From positions 1 through 6,928 of the IMG/VR virus record IMGVR_UViG_2675903352_000017: a stretch of DNA of 6,928 bases; one strand, given 5' to 3'. The notes beneath the pieces were generated by a model. The model ran no database searches. It worked only from the letters and a program-made list of their open reading frames with translations, and was not told where the DNA came from. This DNA is from a virus. Taxonomy: Duplodnaviria; Heunggongvirae; Uroviricota; Caudoviricetes. Below, in pieces: positions 4,489-6,928 of the stretch. Positions within the stretch are counted from its first letter, which is position 1. The number at the start of each line of letters is the position of its first letter. The position numbers and the translations under genes are program-made.

Positions 4489-4914
4489 TTAGTGCATCAC
4501 CACGGCATTTCCTGCCGGGCCACCGCGATTAATCTGGTTGAAACCAGCAATTGCCACCGCAATAAAATCATCTGCATCCCTCACCAGCCGCTCCCGCGTC
4601 TCCAGCAGCTCCCGAAAATAGGCTGAACTGTGACTGCGCATTCGGGCCACCAGCAGAGGCGGCATTGCCTTTTCGATCGCAGGTAACAACGCCTGAATTT
4701 TTTTAACCGCATCAGGGGTGTCTTTCTCCACCCAGCGGAAAATTTTCTGAGTATTGCGAGCCAGGGCTTCAGGATGGCTGTCGTCATATAATTCCGGGAA
4801 CGTCATACCCAGCTCAAAATAAGCTCGGGTTATTTCAGCCGCCGGAACTTTTTCGCCATCAGGACGCGCCCAGGCATTCATCGCCATGCGGATGTGTTCA
4901 TGCTTGATTTTCAT
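4489..4914 (-). CDS. ydaT: YdaT-like protein (proposed CII-like regulator / toxic product of the Rac early-right operon)
   Basis: 141 aa, immediately downstream of the Cro-like gene and upstream of the initiator, matching the size and position of Rac ydaT (about 140 aa). Assigned by synteny and size; I cannot verify the sequence match from memory. Confidence 0.6.
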   Translation of the reverse strand: MKIKHEHIRMAMNAWARPDGEKVPAAEITRAYFELGMTFPELYDDSHPEALARNTQKIFRWVEKDTPDAVKKIQALLPAIEKAMPPLLVARMRSHSSAYFRELLETRERLVRDADDFIAVAIAGFNQINRGGPAGNAVVMH

Positions 4915-4936
4915 GAATCATTTGCCTCTTGATGTT

Positions 4937-5233
4937 TCAGGTATGATCAAATGAGGATTTGTTACTGTCATTTAGTTGCTTCACTGACATATTCTGCGAA
5001 TAACATGCCGAACGTCGTAAATATGACCAGTCAATATCAGGACGAAGTTCTTCGCACAGAACGTCACCTCTTGTTGCACGTTCAATTGCTGGACATCTCT
5101 CTGCAGGCAATTGACGTACCCCTTTGATCCATTGATTTACGCTTGGAGGTGATACACCTAAAAGCCTAGCCATTGCTGATTGCCCACCGACAACAGCACA
5201 AGCTCGCTTGAATGAATAGTTCTCTTTTTTCAT
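4937..5233 (-). CDS. ydaS: Cro/YdaS-family HTH DNA-binding protein, first gene of the early-right operon
   Basis: 98 aa; MKKENYSFKRACAVVGGQSAMARLLGVSPPSVNQWIKGVRQLP... matches my recollection of E. coli K-12 Rac YdaS nearly residue for residue. HTH motif present. GGAG sits 8 nt before the ATG. Divergent from the repressor gene across the operator region. Confidence 0.8.
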   Translation of the reverse strand: MKKENYSFKRACAVVGGQSAMARLLGVSPPSVNQWIKGVRQLPAERCPAIERATRGDVLCEELRPDIDWSYLRRSACYSQNMSVKQLNDSNKSSFDHT

Positions 5234-5259: not shown

Positions 5260-5289
5260 ATATTAGGCGACGCCTAATGCTAATGTCAA
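5260..5289 (-). promoter_or_regulatory. pR-like sigma70 promoter for the ydaS-ydaT-replication operon
   Basis: - strand -35 TTGACA (5289..5284), 18-bp spacer, -10 TAATAT (5265..5260). The -10 and spacer overlap operator O1. The predicted transcript start is about 20 nt upstream of the ydaS SD. Confidence 0.5.
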
Positions 5290-5329
5290 TAGGCTATGCC
5301 TAATGCAGTAAGAATAGGGATTGCCTAAT
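5262..5329. promoter_or_regulatory. OR-like tripartite operator: three 17-bp palindromic sites, consensus ATTAGGC-N3-GCCTAAT
   Basis: O1 5262..5278 ATTAGGCgacGCCTAAT (perfect inverted repeat); O2 5288..5304 AATAGGCtatGCCTAAT; O3 5313..5329 AATAGGGattGCCTAAT. Centres are 26 and 25 bp apart. The sites lie between the divergent repressor and Cro-like genes. Confidence 0.6.
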
Positions 5330-5334
5330 ACAAT
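5329..5334 (+). promoter_or_regulatory. Possible -10 element of a pRM-like repressor promoter (weak or absent -35)
   Basis: TACAAT at 5329..5334 on the + strand, about 7 nt before the racR SD AGGAG (5341..5345), with no good -35 hexamer 17 bp upstream. Resembles an activator-dependent pRM-type promoter next to O3. Speculative. Confidence 0.25.
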
Positions 5335-5356
5335 GAGCATAGGAGAATATTAAGCA

Positions 5357-5833
5357 ATGCTTAGTGGTAAAGACTTAGGCCGAGCAATAGAGCAGGCCAT
5401 TAACAAAAAAATCGCATCGGGATCCGTCAAATCAAAGGCGGAGGTCGCTCGCCACTTCAAAGTCCAACCACCATCAATCTATGACTGGATTAAGAAAGGC
5501 TCCATAAGTAAAGATAAACTTCCAGAATTATGGCGTTTCTTTTCTGATGTTGTTGGTCCAGAGCATTGGGGGCTTAACGAATACCCCATACCAACCCCCA
5601 CCAACTCAGATACAAAAAGTGAACTTTTAGACATAAACAACCTTTATCAGGCAGCCTCTGATGAAATAAGAGCGATTGTAGCTTTCCTGTTATCAGGAAA
5701 TGCTACAGAACCAGACTGGGTTGACCACGATGTTCGCGCCTACATAGCAGCGATGGAAATGAAAGTTGGTAAGTATCTGAAAGTTCTAGAATCTGAACGG
5801 AAAAGCCAGAACATCACAAAAACTGGAACTTAA
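5357..5833 (+). CDS. racR: Prophage repressor, RacR-type (cI functional analogue, HTH)
   Basis: 158 aa; MLSGKDLGRAIEQAINKKIASGSVKSKAEVARHFKVQPPSIYDWIKKG... matches my recollection of E. coli K-12 RacR in sequence and length. HTH near the N-terminus. Flanked on both sides by arrays of the same operator palindrome. Confidence 0.85.
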   Translation: MLSGKDLGRAIEQAINKKIASGSVKSKAEVARHFKVQPPSIYDWIKKGSISKDKLPELWRFFSDVVGPEHWGLNEYPIPTPTNSDTKSELLDINNLYQAASDEIRAIVAFLLSGNATEPDWVDHDVRAYIAAMEMKVGKYLKVLESERKSQNITKTGT

Positions 5834-5846
5834 ACTTATATGGTCT

Positions 5847-5876
5847 GACGGAAAACTCCTGGATTCCGTTATTTAA
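5847..5876 (+). terminator. Weak candidate terminator or stem-loop downstream of racR
   Basis: GACGGAA (5847..5853) pairs with TTCCGT (5864..5869) around a 10-nt loop, followed by TATTTAAT. Stem is short and the U tract imperfect. Confidence 0.2.
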
Positions 5877-5928
5877 TCCCTCCCATCACTTTTTTCATTC
5901 GCATCACCTATTGGGTTACGCCCAGAAC

Positions 5929-5972
5929 ATTAGGCAAAGCCTATTGACAATCAATTAGGCATTACCTATAGT
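5929..5972 (+). promoter_or_regulatory. pL-like sigma70 promoter with two overlapping operator sites (OL-like)
   Basis: -35 TTGACA 5944..5949, exact 17-bp spacer, -10 TATAGT 5967..5972. Operators O4 5929..5945 (ATTAGGCaaaGCCTATT) and O5 5954..5970 (ATTAGGCattACCTATA) are 25 bp centre-to-centre and overlap the -35 and -10. Confidence 0.6.
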
Positions 5973-6071
5973 TCCAGCATGCCACCCACCCCGCCCCACA
6001 GCACGCAGGGCAATACTTCGAGTTACCAGGCAGTGGTCAGGGGTTAAGTAGCCAGCCCGAGGCGTAAGAAC

Positions 6072-6302
6072 ATGACGGCAGGGTTCAACTTTAACTATGC
6101 AGCAGGTTTTTGTTCCGCTACCCCGGCGTTAAGGGGAAATGAGGTCAGCATGGATACTATCGATCTTGGCAACAACGAATCTCTGGTGTACGGCGTGTTT
6201 CCCAACCAGGACGGCACGTTCACCGCGATGACGTATACCAAAAGTAAAACGTTTAAAACCGAAGCTGGCGCGCATCGCTGGTTAGCAAGAAACTCTGACT
6301 GA
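6072..6302 (+). CDS. Small hypothetical protein, first ORF of the early-left operon (76 aa, or 50 aa from the internal ATG at 6150)
   Basis: Track ORF. ATG 6072 has GAGG 9-10 nt upstream; the internal ATG at 6150 has GAGG 6141..6144 with a 5-nt spacer (MDTIDLGNNESLVYGVFPNQDGTFTAMTYTKSKTFKTEAGAHRWLARNSD). Rac carries small ORFs (ydaG/ydaF) in this position, but I cannot confirm the sequence identity. Confidence 0.5.
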   Translation: MTAGFNFNYAAGFCSATPALRGNEVSMDTIDLGNNESLVYGVFPNQDGTFTAMTYTKSKTFKTEAGAHRWLARNSD

Positions 6303-6313
6303 TGAGGTTGACG

Positions 6314-6928
6314 ATGGAATTTAAAGATTTACCTACTTCAATCCAGGAGATTGCAGCACACACACTTCGTCATCGTCTGAACGAACTTGCATTGGAATCG
6401 GTAACGAAAAAAGACACTGATAATATGGCTCGTAATGTGCGCGATGCGTTTACCGGATTGTATTTCTGTGCGTCTGTAAATAAACACGACTCAGAGAGTG
6501 TGGCAAATAAAATTGCAGAAACGACAGCGCAAAACATCAATACGAAACCAACGGAAGAAGAAATTGATCAGTTTGCTCATGATGCTGGTTTAAAAAACAA
6601 GAAAGAAAAATCGCCATATGCGGGGAACATGTTTGTTTATGACAATCTCATCAGAATTCGTGGCGAAATTCCGGCGGAATACCTGGCAAGAGTCCATCAG
6701 GCATTGCTTAAAAATCTGGAAACAGAATTATTTGATGGCAACACTAACGGTTTCTTCATGGTATCAGGCCTTGAGAAAGACTGGGATGCAGAAAAACGCT
6801 GGAATGTTGCTACATGGTTATTCAGTAACAGAGCCGCTGCTCTGGAAGCTTCGGCATGTATTTGCGGCCTGTTCTTAACAGACCACAAATATAATCTGGA
6901 TGTGTACAGTTATATTTACGCTGGTTAA
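6314..6928 (+). CDS. Hypothetical protein, 204 aa from the ATG at 6314 (208 aa from the ATG at 6302, which overlaps the upstream stop as TGATG)
   Basis: Complete ORF ending with TAA at the window edge. GAGG 6304..6307 lies 6 nt before the ATG at 6314. Product MEFKDLPTSIQEIAAHTLRHRLNELALESV... is hydrophilic, with no transmembrane segment and no motif I recognise. It sits in the early-left operon driven by the pL-like promoter. Confidence 0.7.
   Translation: MEFKDLPTSIQEIAAHTLRHRLNELALESVTKKDTDNMARNVRDAFTGLYFCASVNKHDSESVANKIAETTAQNINTKPTEEEIDQFAHDAGLKNKKEKSPYAGNMFVYDNLIRIRGEIPAEYLARVHQALLKNLETELFDGNTNGFFMVSGLEKDWDAEKRWNVATWLFSNRAAALEASACICGLFLTDHKYNLDVYSYIYAG

Follow-up and report, generated by a model that had tools for sequence, protein, structure and literature searches.

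We conclude with high confidence that the 6,928-nt stretch of DNA analyzed here (the window) is the immunity region of a lambdoid prophage of the Rac type and that the three palindromes between its divergent regulatory genes are operators of the repressor RacR. A 1.2-kb region of the window matches E. coli chromosomes with an identity of up to 96.8%, and the matched genes are annotated as racR, ydaS, and ydaT; the identity is 96.1% to K-12 derivatives and 87% to an O157-type variant. As in a Rac-type immunity region, racR and ydaS–ydaT are divergent, with a gap of 123 bp between the racR and ydaS ORFs (Table 1), one of the dyads lies over the racR ATG, and the ydaS promoter is overlapped by the best operator. 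The published elements of the K-12 locus that are described below are all present in the window at the expected places.

The operators, their half-site, and the ydaS promoter are already known, as they were published in 2017–2025 for the Rac prophage of E. coli K-12, and the initial annotation is therefore a correct rediscovery. The published work on K-12 Rac covers the repeats, promoter hexamers, EMSA, DNase I footprints, the ATTAGGC motif, "four operators," and the RacR octamer (PMC5700373, PMC9638921, PMC11014345, PMC11879457). To this picture we add an analysis of natural variants, the fixed positions of the motif in six genera, and a conserved OL/PL-like cassette downstream of racR. The cassette and an apparent swap of repressor domains are modest leads beyond the published work.

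Table 1. Features of the Rac-type immunity region, in window coordinates.
Feature	Position	Strand	Description
ydaT	4489–4914	-	141 aa, CII-like regulator; Pfam YdaT_toxin
YdaT-box	4904–4921	-	ATGATTCATGAAAATCAA; spans the ydaT start codon; exact match to the published K-12 site
ydaS	4937–5233	-	98 aa, Cro-like HTH protein; Pfam YdaS_toxin and P22_Cro
PydaS(T)	5260–5289	-	-35 TTGACA (5289–5284), 18-nt spacer, -10 TAATAT (5265–5260)
O1	5262–5278		ATTAGGCGACGCCTAAT, ATTAGGC-GAC-GCCTAAT, 0 mismatches, palindrome around GAC; between the PydaS -35 and -10
O2	5288–5304		AATAGGCTATGCCTAAT, AATAGGC-TAT-GCCTAAT, 1 mismatch; left edge overlaps the PydaS -35 by 2 bp
PracR2 -10	5307–5312	+	AGTAAG; minor racR promoter; hexamer match, K-12 mutagenesis
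O3	5313–5329		AATAGGGATTGCCTAAT, AATAGGG-ATT-GCCTAAT, 2 mismatches
PracR3 -10	5343–5348	+	GAGAAT; hexamer located, function from K-12
O4	5349–5365		ATTAAGCAATGCTTAGT, ATTAAGC-AAT-GCTTAGT, 3 mismatches; racR ATG in the N3 spacer
racR	5357–5833	+	158 aa, CI-like repressor, N-terminal HTH; ORF, Pfam, orthologue annotation
Lone half-site	5375–5380	+	TTAGGC, inside racR; a dyad there would centre 25 bp from the O4 centre
OL2-like dyad	5929–5945		ATTAGGC-AAA-GCCTATT, 1 mismatch; shares its last two bases with the start of the -35 TTGACA
PL-like promoter	5944–5972	+	TTGACA (5944–5949), 17 nt, TATAGT (5967–5972); 11/12 consensus, best match in the region
OL1-like dyad	5954–5970		ATTAGGC-ATT-ACCTATA, 3 mismatches (poor match); between -35 and -10, overlaps -10
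ydaG-like gene	6072–6302	+	DUF1391; first gene of the PL-like operon; Pfam, orthologue annotation

Operators and promoters between ydaS and racR

The initial annotation had described three sites of the form ATTAGGC-N3-GCCTAAT, one a perfect palindrome and two with one or two mismatches, spaced by 25–26 bp and overlapping a leftward TTGACA-18-TAATAT promoter of ydaS. All of this is borne out by the sequence and by a pattern search: O1, O2, and O3 have 0, 1, and 2 mismatches, their centre-to-centre distances are 26 and 25 bp, and O1 lies between the hexamers of the promoter while O2 touches its -35. A fourth dyad, O4, had been overlooked; it is the site named "O3" in the 2022 paper, and with its three mismatches the match to the consensus is graded across O1–O4. 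O4 also overlaps an off-target site of C.Csp231I, the 23-bp sequence containing this C-protein off-target site being at 5343–5365. In K-12, a single site corresponding to the lone half-site inside racR has been noted; its conservation is inseparable from the coding constraint. On the minus strand, O2 reads as the K-12 OL2 site, ATTAGGCATAGCCTATT.

When up to three mismatches are allowed, the window contains seven matches to ATTAGGC-N3-GCCTAAT, compared to a mean of 0.30 and a maximum of two in 200 dinucleotide-preserving shuffles of the window; hence the array exceeds what is expected by chance. A three-mismatch match at 6696–6712 (ATCAGGCATTGCTTAAA) falls within a 208-aa ORF and was not accepted as an operator; with ∼0.3 such matches expected per window, it is taken as a probable chance match.

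The predicted function of the palindromes as repressor operators with an ATTAGGC half-site agrees with the published RacR EMSA, footprints, and logo for the K-12 orthologue, which is ∼96% identical. In K-12, three GCCTAA/TTAGGC repeats yielded three RacR–DNA complexes in EMSA, and a fragment with one repeat yielded a single complex (Krishnamurthi 2017). In the DNase I footprint, the lowest concentration of RacR was enough to protect the PydaST region, and higher concentrations were needed for the racR promoter region (Wisniewska 2022). In the same study, ATTAGGC was derived as the site of a monomer and (T/A)TAGGC-N3-GCCTA(T/A) as the operator, of which one copy spans the racR ATG (Wisniewska 2022). 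In subsequent publications, the same (Mruk) group reports four inverted repeats or operators, a RacR octamer, and a recognition helix at residues 38–47. In the 2023 paper, which says nothing of looping, the octamer is taken to consist of four dimers bound to the four intergenic repeats.

The ydaS promoter of K-12 has been mapped by primer extension as a single one, with -35 TTGACA and -10 TAATAT, and was abolished by a substitution in the -10 (Wisniewska 2022). For racR, three promoters were mapped in the same study, including PracR2 (-10 AGTAAG) and PracR3 (-10 GAGAAT). PracR3 is the main and strongest racR promoter of K-12, producing a leaderless mRNA that starts at the ATG, position 5357 here (Wisniewska 2022). 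The possible weak rightward promoter of racR proposed in the initial annotation has to be modified accordingly: racR promoter elements are indeed present, but in K-12 there are several promoters, the main one leaderless, instead of a single weak one. From the published -10 boxes, we infer that O3 is located immediately past the PracR2 -10 and overlies what is likely the -35 region of the leaderless promoter. The published hexamers of PracR4, TTGACG and TACGCT, are found within ydaS (window positions 5111–5143), where they are 21 nt apart, an unusually long spacer.

In the mechanism that we propose, RacR dimers would read the TAGGC/GCCTA half-sites of the 17-bp dyads by the recognition helix PPSIYDWIKK. 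O1 within the PydaS core and O2 on its -35 would both occlude the strong promoter of ydaS–ydaT; since the best site, O1, is in the PydaS core and O2 on the -35, low levels of RacR should be sufficient to silence both the Cro-like and the CII-like gene. O3 (-35 region) and O4 (start point), which are weaker sites, would cover the leaderless PracR3, leading to negative autoregulation, so that higher levels of RacR could limit racR itself. With the K-12 orthologue, binding to the intergenic region and repression of PydaS have been shown experimentally, the PydaS core being the first part to be protected, and the promoters have been mapped. As protection in the 2022 footprint extends over broad areas and does not resolve into discrete 17-bp windows, the picture of one dimer per dyad is a model.

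Conservation of the dyads in natural variants and in other genera

We compared 88 Escherichia-type loci, which comprise 41 distinct intergenic sequences, counting one sequence per variant. Columns varying in at least three variants make up 1 of the 35 non-coding core positions (TAGGC/GCCTA) and 22 of the 52 linker and N3-spacer positions (Fisher p = 1.7e-5); this test concerns differences in rate between columns, as the variants share ancestry and the events are not independent. The TAGGC/GCCTA cores of O1 are invariant in all 41 variants, and variation is greater in the two outermost bases of each dyad than in the cores. This supports selection on the half-site cores; that is, natural variation points to the 5-bp cores as the bases under selection, and not to the outer bases or the N3 spacer. 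For the window, such conservation also lends indirect support to the dyads being bound by RacR and to its repression of PydaS. Among the promoter elements, the GAGAAT block (PracR3 -10) is invariant in the 41 variants, and the AGTAAG hexamer (PracR2 -10) varies.

The intergenic sequence of the window is a unique allele among the 88 loci. It shares with K-12 Rac the genes and their order, the ATTAGGC half-site, the PydaS hexamers with the 18-bp spacer, the GAGAAT and AGTAAG -10 boxes, the dyad over the racR ATG, and the YdaT-box, the DNA being ∼96% identical. By contrast, O1 is a perfect palindrome here, while in K-12 it ends in ...CCTAAC; the left half of O3, AATAGGG, is nearer the consensus than GGTAGGG of K-12; and the N3 spacers and linkers differ. 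These differences are allelic only.

RacR-like repressors were also found in Mixta, Morganella, Klebsiella, Proteus, Achromobacter, and Pigmentiphaga, where they are 72–82% identical to RacR over the first ∼79 residues. In these six genera, the dyads are centred at -60, -35, and 0 relative to the repressor ATG. Of these sites, the one at -60 falls within a divergent TAATAT/TTGAC(A/C) promoter, the -35-centred site AATAGGAATTGCCTAA is the orthologue of O3, and the dyad over the repressor ATG is present in all six distant loci, nearer the consensus than in Escherichia. Most of the distant loci carry a YdaS homologue on the opposite strand.

While the distant loci have three dyads, Escherichia Rac has four, at -87, -61, -36, and 0. 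The simplest account is that the extra Escherichia site probably arose by duplication of one 25–26-bp unit, and the units 5288–5312 and 5313–5337 are 76% identical. Both observations would also fit the repeats being a relic of tandem 25–26-bp duplication, or chance palindromes, with no present function. We consider this explanation extremely improbable, and already refuted to the extent that sequence evidence allows, in view of the excess over the shuffled sequences, the nearly invariant cores next to drifting linkers, the positions kept across bacterial orders, and the direct RacR binding data for K-12.

The repressors of Achromobacter (L010:1501-2598) and Pigmentiphaga (L011:1501-2400) combine a RacR-like N-terminal domain (∼75% identity over 77 aa) and the same operators with a C-terminal Peptidase_S24 domain. 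E. coli RacR does not have this domain: a Pfam search with the RacR of the window yielded a weak HTH match alone, with Peptidase_S24 not found. This suggests that C-terminal domains may have been exchanged on a constant module of DNA-binding domain and operators. A PDB sequence search with RacR gave no match at E ≤ 1, and RacR was accordingly assigned to no structural family.

A candidate OL/PL-like cassette downstream of racR

Two further dyads, 25 bp apart and also overlooked previously, are situated downstream of racR together with a PL-like promoter, which reads away from racR into the ydaG-like gene. The PydaS module, taken on the minus strand (ATTAGGCATAGCCTATTGACAttagcATTAGGCGTCGCCTAATAT), and the module downstream of racR (ATTAGGCAAAGCCTATTGACAatcaATTAGGCATTACCTATAGT) have the same design, with a dyad, TTGACA, a second dyad, and the -10 in this order. 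The dyad cores and promoter hexamers of the downstream cassette are invariant in 30 Escherichia variants, and the cassette recurs just past the repressor gene in Mixta, Morganella, Proteus, and Achromobacter.

In K-12, the PL-like promoter is followed by ydaG, ydaF, kilR, ydaE, racC, and recE, and lowering RacR has been reported to raise ydaG, ydaF, kilR, racC, and recET 40- to 70-fold or more. The leftward early operon, in which kilR specifies an inhibitor of cell division and recET function in recombination, appears to have its own pair of RacR operators. We infer that RacR represses the PL-like promoter at the predicted OL sites: when bound to OL1 and OL2, it would occlude the promoter and would most likely silence the leftward early operon (ydaG, kilR, recET). 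On the other hand, the derepression of the ydaG–kilR–recET genes upon the loss of RacR could be partly indirect or Rho-dependent. In the literature searched, which did not extend to subscription journals or EcoCyc/RegulonDB, we found no description of an OL/PL operator of RacR or of a link to sbcA.

As RacR is an octamer, the cassette, ∼670–690 bp away, may pair with the intergenic array by DNA looping. If true, the OL-like pair would offer a direct mechanism by which a drop in RacR derepresses the operon, as well as a partner to which the octamer could loop. In the combined reading, 5929–5945 and 5954–5970 are a true OL, a ∼0.7-kb loop joins OL to the intergenic array through the RacR octamer, in contrast to the 2023 proposal that the octamer just fills the four intergenic dyads, and, across Enterobacterales and Burkholderiales, the N-terminal module and its cassette recur in combination with interchangeable C-terminal domains, either S24 or RacR-type; taken jointly, we regard these propositions as evenly balanced between right and wrong. 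If they hold, Rac would be a natural case of a CI-like repressor that lost SOS inducibility by a domain swap.

A possible third OL site at 5910–5926 was not counted, as it has five mismatches here and four in K-12. Just upstream of OL2, the block CATCACCTATTAGGT at 5903–5916 is invariant in the other 29 variants, the window alone having TTGGGT. This block includes a 5-bp inverted repeat resembling the half-site, ACCTA-T-TAGGT, and may represent a third, degenerate OL site.

The leader of the PL-like transcript (5977–6094) matches ∼3,700 E. coli genomes, most of them without an annotated feature there. Within its first 32 nt, C makes up 53% and T occurs once. As Rho and NusG silence kilR, the leader could be a Rho loading site. 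Folding of 5979–6075 gave z = +0.75, with no structure signal in this segment, and an Rfam search of 5830–6130 at E ≤ 1 yielded chance-level matches only, so that the region is accounted for by no known RNA.

Other readers of the dyads and related switches

The palindromes could also be sites of the CII-like YdaT, whose footprint in K-12 covers -60 to +40 of the ydaS ATG, including the -35 and -10 of PydaST and taking in O1 and O2. This means that more than one factor occupies O1/O2. However, the defined YdaT site, ATGATT-N6-AATCAA, is unrelated in sequence to the dyads; it is found at the YdaT-box over the ydaT start, which has itself been footprinted in K-12. Moreover, the authors saw no clear motif in the intergenic YdaT footprint, binding takes hundreds of nM to µM, and the dyads track the RacR N-terminal domain across genera. 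We therefore rejected YdaT as the reader of the dyads, its role as such being very unlikely, and retain RacR.

YdaS is a further candidate. The dyads may be shared operators, with YdaS binding the ATTAGGC-N3-GCCTAAT sites of RacR in a different order of preference, like Cro and CI in lambda and 434. This is compatible with RacR binding, as it concerns additional readers of the same sites, and we consider it possible, though with the balance somewhat against it. YdaS and the N-terminal domain of RacR resemble each other locally in the HTH (41% over 29 residues, ARxxxVxPPSxxxWIK, pairwise E = 2e-5), spanning 5384–5494 and 5209–5123 (minus strand), respectively, and RacR-like proteins weakly match the YdaS_toxin model; RacR and YdaS may be distant paralogues reading similar DNA. 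In addition, YdaS homologues accompany the motif in five of the distant loci, YdaS of K-12 autorepresses PydaS, and the footprints of YdaS and the repressor overlap in the related CP-933P switch. Yet YdaS has been reported not to repress racR, despite O3 and O4 on the racR promoters, and, as RacR and YdaS are co-inherited, conservation does not distinguish between the two as readers of the sites. In the literature searched, we found no footprint of YdaS for Rac.

The initial annotation had compared the array to the OR1-OR2-OR3 logic of lambda. This comparison stands for the layout. Similar to lambda OR, divergent repressor and cro-like genes flank an array of 17-bp dyads ∼25 bp apart, with the presumably strongest site in the core of the lytic promoter and the presumably weaker sites on the repressor promoter. 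Also like lambda, Rac has a leaderless repressor mRNA, an octameric repressor, and a candidate second operator–promoter cassette beyond the repressor gene. Unlike lambda, Rac has four dyads plus a half-site instead of three dyads, a different half-site sequence, and a candidate OL ∼0.7 kb away compared to 2.4 kb. The C-terminal fold of RacR differs as well, and a LexA-like S24 autocleavage domain, which allows RecA-dependent induction in a lambda-type switch, is missing from RacR by Pfam. In layout, the Rac system works like lambda OR/OL; with no S24 domain in RacR, four dyads rather than three, and a Cro-like protein that reportedly behaves differently, it does not strictly belong to the CI family.

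Another known switch close to that of Rac is found in the CP-933P prophage of E. coli O157:H7 (PaaR2, YdaS, YdaT), whose architecture is the same: it encodes homologues of YdaS and YdaT, its repressor gene is leaderless and its repressor octameric, the intergenic region contains four repeats, and OL sites accompany a PL-like promoter. It differs in immunity specificity, the consensus of its repeats being GTTTAGTAA and not ATTAGGC, and its repressor operon carries a toxin–antitoxin pair.

At gathering thresholds, an Rfam search of the whole window yielded nothing besides a sok antisense RNA at 84–250 on the minus strand (110 bits, E = 3.8e-25), which indicates a hok/sok-type module at the left end of the window. 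Finally, a 5.2-kb contig binned as 'Candidatus Nanosynbacter' (JARKOR010000130.1) carries an E. coli Rac immunity region with RacR 99% identical, most likely a binning or contamination artefact.
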